Source: a virus
Lineage: Duplodnaviria > Heunggongvirae > Uroviricota > Caudoviricetes
DNA: 34,201 nucleotides
Virus record (IMG/VR): IMGVR_UViG_2563366973_000012
Span: 1 to 34,201 of that record
Reading direction: 5' to 3' (one strand)
Shown here: piece by piece, positions 5,898 through 34,201 of the stretch
Numbering within the stretch: the first letter of the stretch is position 1
Layout: each line of letters begins with the position of its first letter
Made by a program: the position numbers and the translations under genes
Notes under the pieces: model-generated
Seen by the model: only the letters and a program-made list of their open reading frames with translations
Databases searched by the model: none
What the model was told of the DNA's origin: nothing

Positions 5898-7727
5898 ATG
5901 AATGATATCTTTGTTCTTACAAGGGAAGAGCTTGAAACACTAGATTATAGTGTTTTTATGCATATACCAGTTACATTTCATGCACATAAAATAAAAAAAT
6001 ATCTGGATGGGATTGCTGAATCATCAGAAAACCCCAAAGAGAAAAAATTAGCATCTCTTTTTGGTATGCTATATAGTTTCAATTTGCAAGTTGTTAACAA
6101 CACTCCATCATTTGAACCCCAAATGATTTGGGGTAATAAAAGATCAATATTGCCTGAAGATTTTGATGAGCAGGTGAATGACTGTCTTTTATATGTTTCT
6201 CAAAAAATAACCAATCCATTTTTGTTATCAAGAATATATGATGTTGTTTGGTGTAATAATCGGAAAAATAAAGACGTGGCAATTAAAGCAATTGATTCCT
6301 ATGCTGAAATGCTAAATATAGCAATTGAAAAGCTAATAATAAAAAACGAAAGCATGGATGAAAGTGATTTAAATTGCTTTATTTTTGCTCGTGATTATAT
6401 TGCTAGGGCTTTGCACATTAATAAAATGGTCTACCCTAGAAAATCAGAAGGAAACATGGCGATTAAAAATGCCATTCATTCTCTTTATAGTATTCAAAAT
6501 GAAAGATTAATCTTTGAAGGTTTCAATAATTTGACTTGGTTTATGGTGCGTGATTTTGATGGGTATAATCTGCAGTATGCGGAAAATGCTGAGAAGATGG
6601 CTGAGCAGCATAAAGATAAAAAATATTATGATGCTGTAAAATCACTTTATATGACAAGTGCAGTTATTTATGAAAAAAATGGTGAGTATGAACGTGCCAA
6701 GAGATGTAAACTGGCATCTGCAAATATTACTATTAAAGTTGCAACAGATCGACCTGATAATATGGGTAAGATCTCTTGGTTAAGAACAGCTATCTCTGAA
6801 TTAAGACAGTACGGTGGTGATAGCCAACAGATAGAAGATTTAAAGGAACAACTTGCTAATTTGAGAGAAGAAGTAAGGAGTGAATATGTCACTTTAAGCC
6901 ATTCTATTGATATTAGTGACTTGGTTGCTGAAAGTGAAAAAAAACTGACGGGGCGTTCTTTGCCCGATATATTCAAAGTTTTAATGAGTGAAACACCGAT
7001 TGAAAATATTGAAAGCATGAGGGAACAAGTTTTAAAATTATCAGAAAAAAGTTTATTCTCTAGTTTTGTTGGAACAGAAATTAATGATGAGAGTGGGCGT
7101 AAGATATATACAATCCCGCCGTTGGATAATAAAAAAGATATGAGTGATGATGTTGTTATTGATCAATATCTAAGAAATTTCGAGATTACTCATAAGATTT
7201 TTGTAAACGGTGTCTTTGAACCTGCTCGCTATGTACTTTCTCAAGAACATGGCTTGACGTTGTCAACATTCGTTAAATTGGTTACAACTAGTCCAATTGT
7301 CAAGCCGGAGTTTAGGGAGATTTTTAATTTGGGCTTTTACAAATTATGGCAGGGAGATTACATCAGTGCAGCTTATCTTTTAATACCACAAATGGAAGGT
7401 ATGGTTCGTTATTATTATGAGCTTAGCGGAAAGGATGCTACTAGATATTTGGATAAGGGATTAGAGGAGTCAACAAGTATTTCTCAGCTTCTAGATAAAT
7501 GCAGAGATGATTTGGAAAGTATCTTTTCTAAAAATCTTGTTTTGACTATCGATGTTCTTTTTAACAGAAAGAGTGGGGCAACCTTAAGACATAAATTAGC
7601 ACATGGTAATTTATATACTAATGCTTGTTACGATGAAACAACGACATATGCGTATTTTCATGAAAGGAGATCACTCAATAACTTCCATCGAGATCGGGTA
7701 ATAACATTTGAACAGATCGCTGAATAA
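5898..7727 (+). CDS. Hotspot cargo protein, 609 aa, unknown family; candidate anti-phage/abortive-infection effector with a C-terminal R-x4-H motif (RHKLAH)
   Basis: Long uninterrupted ORF with RBS AAGGTG 7 nt upstream of the ATG at 5898. Strongly AT-rich compared with the backbone. It sits where P2 carries tin/old. The last 6 codons and the stop lie inside the IS21 inverted repeat. Confidence 0.7.
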   Translation: MNDIFVLTREELETLDYSVFMHIPVTFHAHKIKKYLDGIAESSENPKEKKLASLFGMLYSFNLQVVNNTPSFEPQMIWGNKRSILPEDFDEQVNDCLLYVSQKITNPFLLSRIYDVVWCNNRKNKDVAIKAIDSYAEMLNIAIEKLIIKNESMDESDLNCFIFARDYIARALHINKMVYPRKSEGNMAIKNAIHSLYSIQNERLIFEGFNNLTWFMVRDFDGYNLQYAENAEKMAEQHKDKKYYDAVKSLYMTSAVIYEKNGEYERAKRCKLASANITIKVATDRPDNMGKISWLRTAISELRQYGGDSQQIEDLKEQLANLREEVRSEYVTLSHSIDISDLVAESEKKLTGRSLPDIFKVLMSETPIENIESMREQVLKLSEKSLFSSFVGTEINDESGRKIYTIPPLDNKKDMSDDVVIDQYLRNFEITHKIFVNGVFEPARYVLSQEHGLTLSTFVKLVTTSPIVKPEFREIFNLGFYKLWQGDYISAAYLLIPQMEGMVRYYYELSGKDATRYLDKGLEESTSISQLLDKCRDDLESIFSKNLVLTIDVLFNRKSGATLRHKLAHGNLYTNACYDETTTYAYFHERRSLNNFHRDRVITFEQIAE

Positions 7728-7841
7728 CATCGATGGAGATCACTTTTGACTCATTTTGTTATTCAGTGATCTCCATCAATGTTATTGGAACTTCACAGGT
7801 GTGTTGATCTGTATCTTTTGCCATTCCGGTAAAGGATACCT

Positions 7842-9383
7842 ATGCCAACAGTTCCAATTTCTATGAGAAAACTTAAAGAAATTCTTAGGCTTAAATACGG
7901 TGTTGGACTCAGCCATCGACAAATTGGTCGTAGTCTTGCAATCTCCCCTTCCGTTGTATCCAGATATGCTAATCGGGCGGCTCAACTTGGCATAAAGCAG
8001 TGGCCCTTACCTACAGGATGGGATGATACAAAACTAAAACATGCGTTCCTTCAGACCCAGGTTAAGATGAAGAAGCACTCTCTGCCTGACTGGGCTACAG
8101 TACACCGGGAACTGCGTAATAAATGCGTGACGCTGCAGCTACTCTGGGAAGAATACTGTGAGCGTAATCCAGGCGGTTTTTACAGCTATAACCATTACTG
8201 CCGGATGTACCGTGAATGGCTCAAAACCACTTCACCATCAATGCGTCAGGTACATAAAGCTGGCGAAAAACTTTTCGTTGATTACTGTGGACCTACCGTT
8301 GGCGTTACCGACCCTGAGACCGGAGAAATAAGAACTGCTCAGGTCATCGTAGCTGTTCTCGGGGCATCAAGTTACACATGGGCAGAGGCCACCTGGTCTC
8401 AGCAGCTTGAAGACTGGGTGATGAGTCATGTTCGCTGCTTCCAGTGGTTGGGTGGCGTTCCTGAACTTGTTGTTCCGGACAATCTGAAAAGCGCCACATC
8501 CAGGGCATGTAAGTATGATCCTGACGTTAACCCTACCTACCAGCAGATGCTTGAGCATTATAATGTCGCAGTTTTGCCTGCGCGGCCACGTAAACCGAAA
8601 GATAAAGCCAAAGCTGAAGTTGGCGTTCAGGTTGTTGAACGCTGGATCATGGCCCGAATCAGGCATGAGATCTTCTACAGCCTTGCATCGCTTAATCAGC
8701 GCATTCGGGAGTTGCTGGAAAGACTGAATAACAAAATAATGCAGAAGTTGGGTTATTCACGTGCAGAACTCTTCATCCAGCTTGATAAACCCGCACTGAA
8801 GCCTCTTCCTGAAGCCAGTTACAGTTACACCCTGGTGAAGAAAGTCAGAGTTCATGCCGATTACCACGTGGAAATCGACAAACATTACTACTCGGTTCCA
8901 TGTTCGCTGTTAGGCCAGCAACTGGAAGCATGGATCTCCGGAGAACTGGTAAGACTCTTCAATCAGGGGCAGGAGGTTGCTGTGCACCCGCGCAAGCGTA
9001 CTTATGGCTACAGTACCCGCAACGAGCACATGCCTGAAGCTCATCGACAGCATGCCACCTGGACGCCAGAGCGTCTTCTGGAATGGGCGGGGCACATAGG
9101 CAGTGAAACTCATAGTTATGTGCTTCATATACTGAACTCTCGTCCACATCCGGAACAAAGCTATCGCTTCTGCCTTGGACTCCTGAACCTTCATAAAAAA
9201 TACAGTAAAGCCAGACTTAATGCAGCATGTGCAAGAGCTCTGAAAACAAAGGTATGGCGTCTGTCAGGTATTAAATCGATCCTGGAAAAAGGTCTGGATA
9301 AACAACCTGTTCAGGATCCAAAACCAGATCTGTTATCCACGATGGAACACGAAAACGTACGCGGCAGTGAGTATTACCACTGA
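7842..9383 (+). CDS. istA: IS21-family transposase IstA (513 aa)
   Basis: N-terminal HTH-like region followed by an integrase/DDE-type core, immediately followed by istB; typical IS21 two-gene layout. Confidence 0.85.
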   Translation: MPTVPISMRKLKEILRLKYGVGLSHRQIGRSLAISPSVVSRYANRAAQLGIKQWPLPTGWDDTKLKHAFLQTQVKMKKHSLPDWATVHRELRNKCVTLQLLWEEYCERNPGGFYSYNHYCRMYREWLKTTSPSMRQVHKAGEKLFVDYCGPTVGVTDPETGEIRTAQVIVAVLGASSYTWAEATWSQQLEDWVMSHVRCFQWLGGVPELVVPDNLKSATSRACKYDPDVNPTYQQMLEHYNVAVLPARPRKPKDKAKAEVGVQVVERWIMARIRHEIFYSLASLNQRIRELLERLNNKIMQKLGYSRAELFIQLDKPALKPLPEASYSYTLVKKVRVHADYHVEIDKHYYSVPCSLLGQQLEAWISGELVRLFNQGQEVAVHPRKRTYGYSTRNEHMPEAHRQHATWTPERLLEWAGHIGSETHSYVLHILNSRPHPEQSYRFCLGLLNLHKKYSKARLNAACARALKTKVWRLSGIKSILEKGLDKQPVQDPKPDLLSTMEHENVRGSEYYH

Positions 9384-9394
9384 TACGGGATCCA

Positions 9395-10144
9395 ATGATG
9401 AATCATCTTTACGAACAACTGACCGCACTTAAACTCACCGGCTTCCGTGATGCGCTTAAAAAGCAACTTGCTCAACCGGGCACATACCAGGAGCTGGGCT
9501 TCGAAGAACGCCTGTCATTACTGACAGCAGAAGAACTAACCTGCCGTGAAAACAGGAAGGCAGAGCGTCTGATCAAACATGCACGGTTCAGACTTAATGC
9601 TGAGTTATCAAAGCTGGATTATCGTAACAATAGAGGGCTGGACAGGGCCCTCATCCGTTCACTCAGTCAGGGAAACTGGTTAACCCTGAAACAAAATATT
9701 TTACTGACCGGGGCCACCGGCAGCGGTAAAACGTTCCTGGCATGTGCACTTGGTCATAATGCCTGCCGACAGGGATACAAGGTCTACTATTATCGCCTTA
9801 AAGCGCTGATGGAACAGTGCTATCAGGGGCATGCTGATGGAAGATACAGCAAACTTTTGACCAGGCTGAATAATAGCGATCTGCTGCTTCTGGATGACTG
9901 GGGGCTGGAACCTCTCTCATCAGAACAGCGTAGCGACCTGCTGGAAATAGTGGATCTGATGTACCAACGAGGCTCAATCATCGTAGTGAGCCAGTTGCCG
10001 GTGGAAAACTGGTACAAAATGATCGGAGACTCCACACATGCGGATGCCATCCTAGATCGACTGGTTCATGGCAGTATCAAGATCGAACTTAAAGGAGAAT
10101 CAATGCGGAAAATACAATCTCCGTTGACCGAAGGAGATCAGTGA
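9395..10144 (+). CDS. istB: IS21-family helper ATPase IstB (249 aa)
   Basis: Walker A motif GATGSGKT and Walker B-like LLLLDDWG; directly downstream of istA. Confidence 0.85.
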   Translation: MMNHLYEQLTALKLTGFRDALKKQLAQPGTYQELGFEERLSLLTAEELTCRENRKAERLIKHARFRLNAELSKLDYRNNRGLDRALIRSLSQGNWLTLKQNILLTGATGSGKTFLACALGHNACRQGYKVYYYRLKALMEQCYQGHADGRYSKLLTRLNNSDLLLLDDWGLEPLSSEQRSDLLEIVDLMYQRGSIIVVSQLPVENWYKMIGDSTHADAILDRLVHGSIKIELKGESMRKIQSPLTEGDQ

Positions 10145-10467
10145 AGGTAATTTAAAAACGGTTCTGTGAAAGTGACACGAACCGATCTCCATCGATGTTA
10201 CTCACCGATCTCCTTCACGGTAATACGCAACATATGCATGCATCCTGATTTTCTTTCTGTGTGCTTATCCTCTCCTACCATATTTTGATACTGTTTTTGA
10301 ACAGGGCTCTGTTTGATAACGTATACGTTGAGGCATAAAACCTATGCATACTTAGCTGCATCAATTTGCACGAGGTATTTCAGTATGCATTTTCTGCGTA
10401 ATAGTAGGGATTGCTTGGTTTGGTAGTTGTAATTCAACTGCATTCAAACCGACCCATGAAGCGGGCG

Positions 10468-10486
10468 GGCGAGGCGGGGAAAGCAC
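10468..10486 (+). other. Candidate cos site (19-nt cohesive end, P2 type)
   Basis: GGCGAGGCGGGGAAAGCAC matches the P2 cohesive-end sequence as I recall it, at the expected position just beyond the 3' end of Q. Confidence 0.55.
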
Positions 10487-10628
10487 TGCGCGCTGGCGGT
10501 GGTGCTGATTTTATTTTTTCAGCGTCTGAGCGCGTCGTGATGGCGTTTAGATTGTTCGCCGGGGCGTTGGTGTGTATGCGGGCTGTTTTGTGCGGTGGTG
10601 AGCGTGTGAGGGCGTGATGACGGGGTGT

Positions 10629-10650
10629 AAAAAAGCCGCCCGCAGGCGGC
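10629..10650 (-). terminator. Rho-independent terminator downstream of Q (minus strand)
   Basis: GCCGCC-CGCA-GGCGGC hairpin with an adjacent A6 run on the plus strand (U-run on the minus-strand transcript), immediately 3' of the Q stop. Confidence 0.5.
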
Positions 10651-10655
10651 GATGT

Positions 10656-11690
10656 TCAGCCGTTGTCAGTGTCCAGTGAGTAGTTTTTAAAGCGGATGAC
10701 CTCCTGACCGAGCCAGCCGTTTATCTCGCGGATCCTGTCCTGTAACGGGATAAGCTCATTGCGGACAAAGACCTTTGCCACTTTCTCAATATCACCCAGC
10801 GACCCGACGTTCTCCGGCTTGCCGCCCATCAACTGAAAAGGGATGCGGTGCGCGTCCAGCAGGTCTGCGGCGCTGGCTTTTTTGATATTAAAAAAATCGT
10901 CCTTCGTTGCCACTTCACTGAGCGGGATAATTTTAATACCGTCGGCTTTTCCCTGTGGGGCGTAGAGAAACAGGTTTTTAAAGTTGTTGCGGCCTTTCGA
11001 CTTCACCATGTTTTCGCGAAGCATTTCGATATCGTTGCGATCCTGCACGGCATCGGTGACGTACATGATGTATCCGGCATGTGCGCCGTTTTCGTAATAC
11101 TTGCGGCGGAACAGCGTGGCCGACTCATTCAGCCAGGCAGAGTTAAGGGCGCTGAGATATTCCGGCAGGCCGTACAGCTCCTGATTGATATCCGGCTCCA
11201 GCAGGTGAAACACGGAGCCGGGCGCGAAAGGTGTCGGCTCGTTGAAGGATGGCACCCACCAGTAAACATCCTCCTCCACGCCACGGCGGGTATATTTTGC
11301 CGGTGAGGTTTCCAGTCTGATGACCTTACCGGTAGTGCTGTAGCGCTTTTCCAGAAACGCATTACCGAACACCAGAAAATCCAGCACAAAGCGGCTGAAA
11401 TCCTGCTGGGAAAGCCACGGGTGCGGGATAAACGTTGAAGCCAGAATATTACGTTTGACGTAAATCGGTGAGCTGTGATGCACGGCAGCACGCAGACTTT
11501 TTGCCAGACCGGTAAAGCTGACCGGTGGCTCATACCATCTGCCGTTACTGATGCACTCGACGTAATCCAGAATATCACGGCGGTCGAGTACCGGCACCGG
11601 CTCACCAAAGGTGAATGCCTCCATTTTCGGGGCGCTGGCAGTCATTGTTTTCACCGCTGGCTGCGGTGTTTTCCCTTTTTTCTTACTCAT
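10656..11690 (-). CDS. Q: Portal protein gpQ (344 aa)
   Basis: Length and position match P2 Q; start ATG overlaps the P stop (ATGA). Confidence 0.9.
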   Translation of the reverse strand: MSKKKGKTPQPAVKTMTASAPKMEAFTFGEPVPVLDRRDILDYVECISNGRWYEPPVSFTGLAKSLRAAVHHSSPIYVKRNILASTFIPHPWLSQQDFSRFVLDFLVFGNAFLEKRYSTTGKVIRLETSPAKYTRRGVEEDVYWWVPSFNEPTPFAPGSVFHLLEPDINQELYGLPEYLSALNSAWLNESATLFRRKYYENGAHAGYIMYVTDAVQDRNDIEMLRENMVKSKGRNNFKNLFLYAPQGKADGIKIIPLSEVATKDDFFNIKKASAADLLDAHRIPFQLMGGKPENVGSLGDIEKVAKVFVRNELIPLQDRIREINGWLGQEVIRFKNYSLDTDNG

Positions 11691-13462
11691 CAGTAAAACT
11701 CCAGAATGGTGGATGTCAGCGGAGTGCTGATACCGGCGGTGAGTGGCTCATTTAACAGGGCGTGCATGGTCGCCCAGGCGAGGTCGGCGTGGCTGGCTTC
11801 CTCGCTGCGGCTGGCCTCATAGGTGGCGCTGCGTCCGCTGCTGGTCATGGTCTTGCGGATAGCCATGAACGAGCTGGTGATGTCGGTGGCGCTGACGTCA
11901 TATTCCAGACAGCCACGGCGGATAACGTCTTTTGCCTTGAGCACCATTGCGGTTTTCATTTCCGGCGTGTAGCGGATATCGCGCGCGGCGGGATAGAACG
12001 AGCGCACGAGCTGGAACACGCCGACACCGAGGCCGGTGGCATCAATACCGATGTATTCGACGTTATATTTTTCGGTGAGTTTGCGGATGGATTCAGCCTG
12101 GGTGGCAAAGTCCATGCCTTTCCACTGGTGACGCTCAAGGATCCTGAATTTGCCACCGGCCACCACCGGCGGTGCCAGCACCACGCATCCGGCGCTGTCG
12201 CCACGGTGTGACGGGTCGTAACCAATCCATACCGGGCGGGAGCCGAACGGATTTGCGGCAAACGGCGCATAGTCTTCCCATTCTTCCAGCGTGTCGACCA
12301 TACAGCGTTGCAGCTCCTCGAACGGGAACACCGACGCCTTGTCGTCAACAAATTCACACATGAACAGGTTTTTAAAATCGTCGGCGCTGTTTTCGCGTTT
12401 GAGCTGCTCAATGTCGAACAGCGTGCAGCCGCCTTTCAGGGCGTCCTCAATGGTGACAATCTGCCGCCACTGGCCGTCCGCACAGAGAAGCCCACCGGCA
12501 AGGGCGTTATGACTGACGTCGATTTCCACGCGTTCGGCGGCGCTGGCGCGTCCCCGGTTGAACAGTTCACCCGACCAGAACGGGTAGGCGTCGTGCGCCA
12601 GTGTGGACGGGGTGGAGAAATAGGTCGAGCGCAGGTGACTCTGTGAGGCCATACCTGATGCCACCTTACGCAGTACCTGAAAATTCGGGATCCAGAAAAT
12701 CTCGTCGACGTACAGGTCGCCGTTATGGCTCTGCGCGGTGTTGGAGTTGGTGCCGAGAAAAATCAGTTTTGCGCCGTTATTGCCCAGGACAATCGGGTCA
12801 CCGGTCAGGTCAACGTCAACCAGACGGGCAAAGGCGATGATGTATTCGCGGAACACATACGCCTGCGTTTTACTGGCCGACAGAAAAATCTGGTTATGAC
12901 CGGTTTTCAGGGCGCGCAGCAGCGCCTCGCGGGAAAAATAAAACGTCGCGCCAATCTGGCGGGATTTCAGGATATCGCGGATGCGGTGCTCAAGCCCGGC
13001 GCGATACCAGTGCAACTGATATTCGAAAGACTGCTCAAAGAAAATCTGCTCCAGCTTTTCGATAGCCTCGTCACTGAAAAAATTCTTTTTCGGTTTGCGC
13101 CGCCCGCCTTTGTTGCGGTTAGCGATGTTCGGATTAAGGTCTGCCTCGTTGCCGGTCTGGCTGTAGCGGTTTACCCGTGCCAGTCGTTCAATCTGGCGTC
13201 CGAGCAGGTCAATTTCCTTGAAGTCACCGCCGGTTTTCTGCGGTTTGATGATGAGCTGGGTCAGCCGCGCTTCCAGACTCATTTCGACACGGCTGATGGG
13301 GGCAACGCTGTCCCAGCCGTCGCGCTGTTTCCAGCTCTGCACCGTCGGGCGTTTCATCTGCAACATGGCGGCAATCTGCGGCACGGAAAACCCCTGCCAG
13401 TACAGCAGCGCCGCCTGACGACGCGGGTCGTGTAAAAGAGTGGTGTCTGTGGTGATGGTCAT
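11690..13462 (-). CDS. P: Terminase large subunit gpP (ATPase)
   Basis: Start placed at MTITTDTTLL (the P2 gpP N-terminus as recalled) rather than the ORF-track start at 13492. Confidence 0.9.
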   Translation of the reverse strand: MTITTDTTLLHDPRRQAALLYWQGFSVPQIAAMLQMKRPTVQSWKQRDGWDSVAPISRVEMSLEARLTQLIIKPQKTGGDFKEIDLLGRQIERLARVNRYSQTGNEADLNPNIANRNKGGRRKPKKNFFSDEAIEKLEQIFFEQSFEYQLHWYRAGLEHRIRDILKSRQIGATFYFSREALLRALKTGHNQIFLSASKTQAYVFREYIIAFARLVDVDLTGDPIVLGNNGAKLIFLGTNSNTAQSHNGDLYVDEIFWIPNFQVLRKVASGMASQSHLRSTYFSTPSTLAHDAYPFWSGELFNRGRASAAERVEIDVSHNALAGGLLCADGQWRQIVTIEDALKGGCTLFDIEQLKRENSADDFKNLFMCEFVDDKASVFPFEELQRCMVDTLEEWEDYAPFAANPFGSRPVWIGYDPSHRGDSAGCVVLAPPVVAGGKFRILERHQWKGMDFATQAESIRKLTEKYNVEYIGIDATGLGVGVFQLVRSFYPAARDIRYTPEMKTAMVLKAKDVIRRGCLEYDVSATDITSSFMAIRKTMTSSGRSATYEASRSEEASHADLAWATMHALLNEPLTAGISTPLTSTILEFY

Positions 13463-25073: not shown

Positions 25074-25601
25074 ATGCAGCATTTAAAAAACATTAAGTCA
25101 GGTAATCCAAAAACAAAAGAACAATATCAGCTAACAAAGAATTTTGATGTTATCTGGTTATGGTCCGAAGACGGAAAAAACTGGTATGAGGAAGTAAGTA
25201 ATTTTCAGGAAGACACGATAAAGATTGTTTACGATGAAAATAATATTATTGTCGGCATCACCAGAGATGCTTCAACGCTCAACCCTGAAGGTTTCAGCGT
25301 TGTCGAGGTTCCTGATATTACCGCCAACCGACGTGCTGATGACTCAGGGAAATGGATGTTTAAGGATGGTGCCGTGATTAAGCGGATTTATACGGCAGAC
25401 GAACAGCAACAACAGGCAGAATCACAAAAGGCCGCGTTACTTTCCGAAGCGGAAAGCGTTATTCAGCCACTGGAGCGCGCTGTCAGGCTGAACATGGCAA
25501 CAGATGAGGAGCGTAGCCGACTGGAAGCATGGGAACGCTACAGTGTTCTGGTCAGCCGTGTGGATCCTGCAAATCCTGAATGGCCGGAAATGCCGCAATA
25601 A
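25074..25601 (+). CDS. G: Tail fiber assembly protein gpG (175 aa)
   Basis: Immediately downstream of H; size and position typical of a tail fiber assembly chaperone. Confidence 0.8.
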
Positions 25602-25990: not shown

Positions 25991-26518
25991 ATGGACTGGA
26001 AAGATCTTGCATCAACCGCTGTGTATACAGGTATGACTGATGAAAATGAAAACATATGGGGACGTGTTGATGGGGTTGACGTTGCCTTCATAGGTGCCTT
26101 TCTTACTGCGCACTTGAGCCTTGAAAAGTATATTACTGATTATCTTGGATTAAGATATCCTTCGTTAGCTTGGGGTGATGCAAAACTCACATTTTCACAA
26201 AAAATAGCTTTAATACAACATGAGCCTGCAAAACCCCCTTATGATGAAATATATTTAAGAATAAAAGACTTTAACAGCATAAGAAATAAAATCAGTCATC
26301 AATTGAATTATCAGATTACGGATAAAGAAAAAAGTAAGTTTGTGGACTTCTACATGAAGATTACTAAAGCCAGTAAAACTAAACCAAATATTGATATTGA
26401 TAACATGGCGGATTTGTTGGATTTTTTCGTATCGATGACAAAATCCTATTTTGCTAGTGCTATTTCTTATTATCACTATAATAAAAAGGTTGCAGGTAAA
26501 AGTAATAAAATTGATTAA
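25991..26518 (+). CDS. Hotspot cargo protein, 175 aa, unknown family; candidate anti-phage effector with an R-x4-H motif (RNKISH)
   Basis: Clean ORF with RBS AAGGA; AT-rich; located where P2 carries Z/fun between G and FI. Confidence 0.65.
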   Translation: MDWKDLASTAVYTGMTDENENIWGRVDGVDVAFIGAFLTAHLSLEKYITDYLGLRYPSLAWGDAKLTFSQKIALIQHEPAKPPYDEIYLRIKDFNSIRNKISHQLNYQITDKEKSKFVDFYMKITKASKTKPNIDIDNMADLLDFFVSMTKSYFASAISYYHYNKKVAGKSNKID

Positions 26519-33559: not shown

Positions 33560-34201
33560 ATGGAAAAAGTTATAATTGAGCTTGATAATCGTTGGGAGTT
33601 AGCTGATTTCGCGGTCTTAACGAAAGAGTATTTGCAGCTATATGGTTTTTTTTATGGCCTAAAAGGAGGATCAAGAGGATATTCAACAATGCCTTGGGAG
33701 GGTGGGCACAGTGTAGTGAACTTTTTTAGAGGGGCTTACAGTGCGACTCCACCAGATTTACGTCCTGTAGTGAAAAAAATTCAGTATGCCTCTCCTGGCT
33801 TTATTGAATTGTCTGCTCTTATTGATATCTCTTGGCAGATTGCTGAGTTAGTTACTGCTGTTGGTGGAAGTATTCTGGCTGCCAACAAAGTTTACGATCA
33901 GGTGATGCGTACATATCGACAAAGAGAATGGGCAAAGTTGAAATCAGAGAAGCTGCGTATACAGAATCAAATTAAAGAGATTGAACTTGTTTCTGACGCA
34001 GTTAAATCACTTGAATCTGTGATGGCACTTAGTGAAGAACAACGTAAAAACTTGGTTCAACTATCGGGGGCAGATGAACTGGTTCAGTTAAAGATACTTT
34101 TGGCTGTTTACCGACGGTTATCTCCTCTTGTTGAGTTGCAAAACAGCGGGAAAGCTAATTTTTCTGCAGGGAAAAATAAAAATTTAAAAGCGTCCGATTA
34201 A
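33560..34201 (+). CDS. Hypothetical protein (213 aa), AT-rich, beyond the prophage right end; unknown function
   Basis: Complete ORF ending at the window edge; the helical, K/E-rich C-terminal half is suggestive of coiled coil. Not part of the P2 backbone. Confidence 0.45.
   Translation: MEKVIIELDNRWELADFAVLTKEYLQLYGFFYGLKGGSRGYSTMPWEGGHSVVNFFRGAYSATPPDLRPVVKKIQYASPGFIELSALIDISWQIAELVTAVGGSILAANKVYDQVMRTYRQREWAKLKSEKLRIQNQIKEIELVSDAVKSLESVMALSEEQRKNLVQLSGADELVQLKILLAVYRRLSPLVELQNSGKANFSAGKNKNLKASD

Follow-up and report, generated by a model that had tools for sequence, protein, structure and literature searches.

P2-like phages carry a defence hotspot between gpA and gpQ, beside cos, which in P2 itself holds old and tin and in its relatives holds diverse anti-phage systems (Rousset et al. 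2022, PMC9122126). Pseudogenes of defence genes are reportedly rare there (PMC13586616). The insertion sequence ISEc12 has been described elsewhere in E. coli, with a reported target-site duplication of 5 bp (PMC10711316). HEPN proteins are marked by an Rx4-6H motif in which a polar residue follows the R, and this motif is placed where the penultimate helix ends (PMC3710099).

Here, we describe a locus at which these subjects meet. The window (the whole stretch of DNA that was analysed, 34,201 nucleotides) is a P2-like E. coli prophage with a single cargo gene in its gpA-gpQ interval adjoining cos; the flanking genes are annotated as a replication endonuclease and a phage portal protein. The 19-mer GGCGAGGCGGGGAAAGCAC, which we take to be the P2 cohesive end, lies just to the right. 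The account that very probably applies is that ISEc12 entered codon 584 of this gene, duplicated ACATA and recently turned a candidate defence gene into a probably impaired chimera that lacks the native tail. The features are as follows.

5898..7648, plus strand: cargo gene, native segment with codons 1-583 and the first two bases of codon 584 (100% match to the IS-free allele)
7644..7648, no strand: left ACATA copy of the target-site duplication (abuts the IS end; single ACATA in empty sites)
7649..10229, plus strand: complete ISEc12 (near-identical copies elsewhere, 11 copies of the same length, RefSeq names)
7649..7698, plus strand: left terminal inverted repeat, outermost repeat block (end alignment from base 1)
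7649..7727, plus strand: IS-encoded tail of the chimeric ORF, comprising the third base of codon 584, residues 585-609 and TAA (translation)
7723..7786, plus strand: strong hairpin built from a pair of inverted repeats inside the IS left end, overlapping the chimeric stop codon
7735, and inverted at 7768: more GGAGATC-containing repeats of the left end (motif positions)
7842..9383, plus strand: istA, DDE transposase, 513 aa (Pfam rve and Mu-transpos_C_2; WP_001298859.1 in other genomes)
9395..10144, plus strand: istB, AAA+ helper ATPase (Pfam IstB_IS21, 227.5 bits)
10180..10229, minus strand: right terminal inverted repeat (end alignment; GGAGATC at 10184 and 10207, minus strand)
10230..10234, no strand: right ACATA copy of the target-site duplication (junction and empty-site comparison)
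10235..10316, plus strand: orphaned native 3' end, comprising the last base of codon 584, 26 codons (ACILIFFLCAYPLLPYFDTVFEQGSV) and TGA (reconstruction)
10468..10486, plus strand: P2-type cos 19-mer (exact single match, 238 nt right of the IS)

The element and its insertion site

A reading of the sequence alone had recognized an istA/istB element of the IS21 family inside the 3' end of a 609-aa ORF (5898-7727), and this holds. The element is a complete ISEc12 of 2,581 bp, with ends TGCGTATT…AATACGCA and with istA and istB consecutive on the same strand in the layout of the IS21 family; its name comes from the RefSeq product annotation of istA and istB in other genomes ('IS21-like element ISEc12 family'). 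Copies from unrelated contexts, 99.8-100% identical, have match limits that fall exactly at 7649 and 10229, all 11 of 11 independently placed copies measure 2,581 bp, and 2,144 records reach at least 99% identity. The istB product is 249 aa when counted from the first ATG and 248 aa in RefSeq, where the start lies one codon later.

The two ends align end to end as inverted repeats from base 1 (TGCGTATT), the termini are TG…CA, and several further repeat copies lie internally, with three GGAGATC-containing repeats per end in a motif scan. The left-end hairpin has 22-nt arms that are 95% complementary (RNA fold -32.7 kcal/mol, z = -6.4). In a simple consensus scan the sole promoter-like site lay inside istB, and neither IS end had one that faces outward; the suggestion that outward-facing ends could affect transcription gains nothing from that scan.

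In IS21-type elements, where each end holds several internal repeats, the inverted repeat that stands out most does not mark the terminus. The sequence-only reading had started the element at about 7709 (or 7704) and run it to about 10218, with a 7-bp GGTAATA duplication, six IS-encoded residues and about 20 native codons beyond, and there is next to no chance that this anatomy is right. The 28-nt inverted repeat at 7714-7741 and 10184-10211, 93% complementary, does exist, and GGTAATA does occur at 7697-7703 and 10219-10225. However, the whole of 7649-10229 is common to ISEc12 copies at unrelated loci, so that the supposed terminal repeats are internal ones and both GGTAATA copies lie within the IS; the heptamer is in any case common, with eight occurrences in the window. 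IS-free genomes match the reconstruction built on 7649 and 10229 at 100% and not the one built on GGTAATA, and native proteins go on …YACILIFF….

The target-site duplication is ACATA, 5 bp. Other ISEc12 copies have duplications of 5-6 bp, and the IS21 family as a whole duplicates 4-8 bp of target. When 7648 is joined to 10235, the resulting 800 nt are 100% identical, in one piece, to the prophage of E. coli MS20674; for at least 54 genomes the match extends over at least 80% of this empty-site query, and IS-free genomes have one ACATA there. Long flank extensions in megablast matches had hinted at a target-site consensus for ISEc12, and these proved to be alignment run-on. The flanks of 11 ISEc12 copies have no common target sequence, and their duplications (5-6 bp) are unrelated; the exception in length is copy L010, with an imperfect repeat of 7-8 bp.

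Could the placement of the IS be an artefact of draft assembly, with a repeat collapsed or mis-joined? The source is indeed a scaffold (KB732644.1) of a draft assembly, and E. coli genomes that have ISEc12 at all carry it at a median of three places. The perfect 5-bp duplication nevertheless speaks against mis-assembly: a full-length IS flanked by such direct copies of a sequence that is single in the empty site is the signature of real transposition, and prophage sequence that is otherwise identical continues without a break from both junctions. We consider an artefact very improbable.

The chimeric reading frame

On the best reading of the locus, the gene had 610 codons, and a complete ISEc12, with its IstA DDE transposase and IstB AAA+ helper, transposed into codon 584 and duplicated the 5-bp target ACATA. 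The frame now leaves the native gene at codon 584, continues for 25 codons in the left end of the IS and stops at TAA, giving an intact-looking 609-aa chimera that has lost the conserved hydrophobic C-terminal helix behind the Rx4H motif.

The native part (5898-7648) is 100% identical to the IS-free allele of MS20674. Residues 1-584 of the chimeric ORF are native, and the IS supplies residues 585-609 (AYFHERRSLNNFHRDRVITFEQIAE) together with the stop (7725-7727); in alignment, the chimera diverges from its homologues from residue 586 on. It had been correctly seen that the final residues and the TAA come from IS DNA and that the native tail was replaced, although the number of IS-encoded residues is 25 rather than six (FEQIAE). 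Removal of the IS and one ACATA restores a 610-aa native protein ending …YACILIFFLCAYPLLPYFDTVFEQGSV (WP_021535452.1), with whose end the orphaned 3' segment is identical. IS-free alleles therefore do not share the FEQIAE-stop ending, and the IS boundary, at 7649, lies upstream of the stop codon. The native frame runs for 26 codons into the right flank, in another register than had been supposed, to a TGA at 10314-10316.

The lost tail is hydrophobic, and homologues with identities as low as 48% retain it; among 20 homologues (48-67% identity) C586, L588, F590, C593, A594, P596 and F605 are invariant. The swap from native to chimeric tail takes the mean hydropathy from +1.32 to -0.91 and the number of charged residues from 2 to 8. 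In an AlphaFold model the last helix consists of native residues 580-604, with block pLDDT 78-92; the modelled sequence is the cluster representative P0001, which is 99% identical to the native protein and has 22 extra N-terminal residues.

The cargo protein and the effect of the insertion

The N-terminus of the cargo protein matches Pfam DUF7380 at 134.8 bits (gathering cut-off 27), as do 20 of 20 homologues, and the centre is TPR-like. The native protein matches the PADLOC candidate PDC-S39 over residues 7-598 (E = 7e-85 and 6e-84). Near the C-terminus is an Rx4H motif, R564-H565-K-L-A-H569, which is invariant in the 20 homologues and which the AlphaFold model places at the end of the helix preceding the last one. 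Pfam DUF4209 scores 20.0 bits, below its gathering score of 22.3; ten of the 20 homologues match it at E<0.01, none shown to reach the cut-off. Fold searches retrieved no HEPN structures. The motif and its position suggest that the C-terminus is HEPN/DUF4209-like and that the protein is a candidate HEPN-type RNase defence effector. A literature search on PDC-S39 and DUF7380 returned incidental mentions only, with no experimental anti-phage activity or functional study.

If the swapped tail were dispensable, the 609-aa chimera could be functional, perhaps with a changed function, and the allele would be a working defence gene. The chimera is nearly native in length (609 versus 610 aa) and keeps the catalytic-looking Rx4H motif; 96% of the protein is intact; the PDC-S39 match, which ends at residues 584-587, is nearly unchanged (280.1 bits versus 280.8 for the native protein; E about 1e-83); and RefSeq annotates the chimera (WP_001554301.1) as an ordinary DUF7380 protein. 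All of this argues against a loss of function. The replaced segment, however, belongs to the best-conserved stretches of the family, with its seven invariant positions, and is a confidently predicted terminal helix; what replaces it is hydrophilic and highly charged, and the chimeric allele is a singleton without sign of spread. A working chimera is therefore unlikely, although it is the most credible of the alternatives weighed here, and the protein is likely to be non-functional or impaired. Of the earlier proposal of a possibly inactivated allele, the replacement of the tail stands as observed, and the impairment itself is probable.

Age of the allele, and other insertions near cos

With the IS removed, the window aligns with the IS-free MS20674 prophage over 31,615 nt with no mismatch and one gap. 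The exact chimeric protein occurs on one public contig, the native protein on 716. Given a remainder of the prophage free of mismatches and a chimera confined to one contig, the insertion is recent, as had been proposed for the allele. The junction was found as one colinear piece in none of 5,426 complete E. coli genomes, the two full-coverage matches among them being two-piece and derived from different insertion sites. The insertion is thus a recent, strain-specific and ordinary event.

Is it nonetheless more than a random hit? In an unsystematic tally, five independent ISEc12 insertions (the window, CH436, TUM9975, BCE-1 and OkiPb01678) lie within about 1.7 kb, all in the same orientation, among roughly 55-60 genomes with the cargo gene, and P2-type genes for replication, tail and tail-fibre assembly also contain copies. 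This pattern would fit targeting or selection, whether through a cos-proximal preference of ISEc12 or through an advantage of a disabled prophage or defence gene. However, the 11 insertion sites lack a shared target sequence, accessory and prophage DNA is generally tolerant of insertions, such that enrichment may reflect relaxed selection alone, and five of five in one orientation has a chance probability of about 0.06. We regard a targeted or selected insertion as improbable. Slightly less probable still is the fuller proposal that the cos-proximal end of this prophage lineage is a genuine ISEc12 hot region, with IstB preferring bent cos-flanking DNA, or with selection for disabling the prophage or the HEPN-like abortive-infection candidate; if it were true, the allele in the window would exemplify how a phage-borne defence gene decays through an IS, a course reportedly uncommon in P2 hotspots. 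If anything here deserves systematic study, it is the recurrence of ISEc12 insertions in this prophage region in other strains.

Meaning and comparison with known systems

A common E. coli IS has made a single recent hit in an uncharacterised defence candidate, probably inactivating it. With the IS 26 codons before the stop, ORF length is almost unchanged, and RefSeq and PADLOC-type profiles still call an intact DUF7380 or PDC-S39 protein. Because truncated alleles pass such profiles as intact, counts of "intact" defence genes can include dead alleles.

As an element, the copy in the window is ISEc12 without any difference: more than 2,000 annotated copies match it at 99.8-100% nucleotide identity over all 2,581 bp. 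The insertion site alone is particular to the strain. The closest described event is the insertion of ISEc12 into tssM in E. coli ST131 clade C (PMC10711316), which inactivates what is likewise an accessory gene, likewise comes with a 5-bp duplication and can likewise be diagnosed from junction sequences. The tssM insertion, however, cuts through the middle of its gene and has become fixed in a large clone, whereas the cargo-gene insertion lies 26 codons before the end, the ORF still looks intact, and the insertion is a singleton. The cargo protein resembles the HEPN C6orf70/DUF4209 family in its R-x4-H motif, in the polar residue (H) after the R, in the placing of the motif where the penultimate helix ends and in the fusion to TPR-like repeats (Anantharaman et al. 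2013, PMC3710099); it differs in that DUF4209 falls below its gathering score and no HEPN fold match was obtained, and an RNase role is putative. The cargo gene shares with the old/tin locus of P2 the gpA-gpQ interval beside cos (PMC9122126), but it is a PDC-S39/DUF7380 candidate and neither old, tin nor a validated system, and its disruption by an IS contrasts with the reported rarity of defence pseudogenes in P2 hotspots (PMC13586616).

Layout of the prophage

Gene order in the window, running from integrase, cox and the gpA replication endonuclease gene to the portal, terminase, capsid and tail genes, identifies a P2-like prophage. The proposal, made in a sequence-only reading, that the cargo gene has an IS21-family element at its 3' end holds: Pfam places istA and istB right after the 609-aa ORF.

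Features of the cargo gene and ISEc12 in the window
5898-7727, + strand: cargo ORF, 609 aa, flanked by gpA and the portal gene gpQ
7723-7786: hairpin, two inverted internal repeats of the ISEc12 left end (-32.7 kcal/mol, z = -6.4)
7842-9383, + strand: istA (Pfam rve and Mu-transpos_C_2), 3' of the cargo ORF
9395-10144, + strand: istB (Pfam IstB_IS21), after istA

The 19-mer that we take to be the P2 cos sequence is matched exactly at 10468-10486, which is 238 nt beyond the right end of the IS. The cargo gene occupies the gpA-to-gpQ locus adjoining cos, which is the old/tin position of P2 and has been described as a defence hotspot (PMC9122126). The IS insertion enlarges a prophage of about 32 kb by 2,586 bp.

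Other cargo candidates are present. The right end of the prophage carries, after ogr, a 213-aa ORF (33560-34201, running off the end of the window; complete at 31975-32616 of L007, the IS-free MS20674 prophage locus) that lacks a Pfam domain, hits the PADLOC profile PD-T4-10_B (E = 1e-34) and could be a further defence-related cargo. A 175-aa cargo ORF with neither a Pfam nor a PADLOC match (25991-26518) lies between the tail-fibre assembly and tail sheath genes, the Z/fun position of P2.

Boundaries of ISEc12 and the target duplication

The ends of the element were located by megablast of positions 7350-10600 against 5,426 complete E. coli genomes, which returned thousands of ISEc12 copies. 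Those residing elsewhere, in tra genes, autotransporters and other prophage genes, cover precisely query positions 300-2880, equivalent to 7649-10229 of the window. All 11 copies extracted from independent sites are 2,581 bp long, start with TGCGTATTTT and end with GTAATACGCA, and are flanked by direct duplications of 5-6 bp, one of them imperfect. When the left and right ends are aligned, they pair as inverted repeats from base one. The left terminus is therefore at 7649 and not, as had been suggested, at about 7709. The target duplication in the window is ACATA (7644-7648 and 10230-10234), a perfect repeat that argues against an assembly artefact and agrees with the 5-bp duplication reported for ISEc12 in tssM of ST131 (PMC10711316).

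GGTAATA, the duplication initially put forward, has to be abandoned because both copies (7697-7703 and 10219-10225) fall within the IS. The inverted repeat 7714-7741/10184-10211 was also rejected as the terminus, being one among several internal GGAGATC-containing repeats; IS21-type ends typically carry such repeats. The window element has all of the defining ISEc12 and IS21-family features that were tested.

The empty site and the native gene

An 800-nt query spanning the joint of 7648 to 10235 matches E. coli MS20674 in one piece at 100% identity, and at least 80% of it is covered in at least 54 genomes. Annotations of IS-free genomes give the gene product as a DUF7380 protein of 610 aa (WP_021535452.1). 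ISEc12 entered at codon 584, with native residues 1-584 retained; residue 585 is Ala in both alleles by coincidence (encoded by GCG in the chimera and by GCA in the native gene). The IS left end supplies residues 586-609 and the TAA stop, so that the new tail reads AYFHERRSLNNFHRDRVITFEQIAE, and the native tail (ACILIFFLCAYPLLPYFDTVFEQGSV) with its TGA is stranded to the right of the IS at 10235-10316. The "FEQ" common to the two tails is likewise coincidental.

The gist of the sequence-only reading thus survives, although its coordinates do not. The IS has indeed replaced the native C-terminal tail, since IS-free alleles end otherwise, and the new tail and stop are IS-encoded, but the IS contributes 25 residues rather than only the last six, and the native frame extends 26 codons into the right flank rather than about 20.

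Identity of the cargo protein and probable effect of the insertion

Pfam places DUF7380 at residues 4-184, PADLOC classes the full-length protein as the single-gene defence candidate PDC-S39 (E about 1e-84), and PHROGs puts it in a phage family without assigned function. DUF4209 matches the C-terminus below threshold (20.0 bits vs a cut-off of 22.3) and is found at E<0.01 in 10 of 20 homologues, which come from Klebsiella, Kosakonia, Enterobacter and others. Anantharaman et al. placed DUF4209, commonly fused to TPR repeats, within the HEPN superfamily, whose Rx4-6H motif is located at the end of helix 3, ahead of helix 4 (PMC3710099). In the cargo C-terminal region R564-x4-H569 (RHKLAH) is invariant across the 20 homologues. 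An AlphaFold model of a representative 99% identical to the native protein (mean pLDDT 78.8) is all-helical, with the Rx4H motif closing the penultimate helix and native residues 580-604 forming the final one.

The IS junction would interrupt this predicted final helix about five residues in. The lost tail ranks among the family's most conserved segments, with C586, L588, F590, C593, A594, P596 and F605 invariant in all 20 homologues (48-67% identity). It is hydrophobic (mean hydropathy +1.32, 2 charged residues), and its IS-encoded replacement is polar (-0.91, 8 charged residues). Loss or strong impairment of function is the likeliest outcome, and we consider it probable. Because the chimera scores nearly as well as the native protein against PDC-S39 and carries the ordinary RefSeq name 'DUF7380 domain-containing protein' (WP_001554301.1), automated pipelines miss the disrupted allele; 3'-end insertions in genes are an annotation blind spot.

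An effect of outward-facing IS ends on transcription, also suggested earlier, finds no backing in a consensus scan, which detected no outward-facing promoter-like site at either end and only one site within istB. The hairpin at 7723-7786, which belongs to the IS proper and has no U-tract, lies between the IS terminus and istA, overlapping the chimeric stop codon, and might weaken read-through into istA from neighbouring genes.

Age and frequency of the insertion

Once the IS and one ACATA copy are taken out, the window aligns over 31,615 nt to the MS20674 prophage (located between cpxP and fieF) with no mismatch and a single gap. The exact chimeric protein (WP_001554301.1/ELD94031.1) is recorded on one contig (assembly GCA_000351445.1) and the exact native protein on 716, which bears out the suggestion of a recently altered allele. 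The window junction was found as one colinear piece in none of the 5,426 complete E. coli genomes searched. The insertion is thus a recent one, specific to this strain.

The sole difference between the two prophages in 31.6 kb is that single-base gap. The tail-fibre assembly gene is an intact 175-aa ORF in the window (25074-25601) and is annotated as frameshifted in MS20674 (L007 23488-24016).

Comparison with other ISEc12 insertions

Near-identical P2-like prophages in other E. coli strains contain four more independent ISEc12 insertions. These fall in the same region (window equivalent about 10300-11700), within about 1.7 kb, and all share the orientation of the window copy.

ISEc12 in P2-like prophage loci of other strains (locus coordinates)
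L002, 4354-6934: 70 nt beyond the cargo stop, duplication TCAGTA
L003, 3451-6031: just beyond cos, duplication TAAGG
L004, 3626-6206: within the portal gene, duplication GCGCG
L005, 4463-7043: portal/terminase junction, duplication CTCATC

A hot region, or no more than relaxed selection, could explain such clustering. Both defence pseudogenes and transposable elements are reported as infrequent among P2-like phages (PMC13586616), which makes the window allele a minor counter-example. The insertion is an ordinary event of a type already understood, the same in kind as the published interruption of tssM by ISEc12 (PMC10711316).
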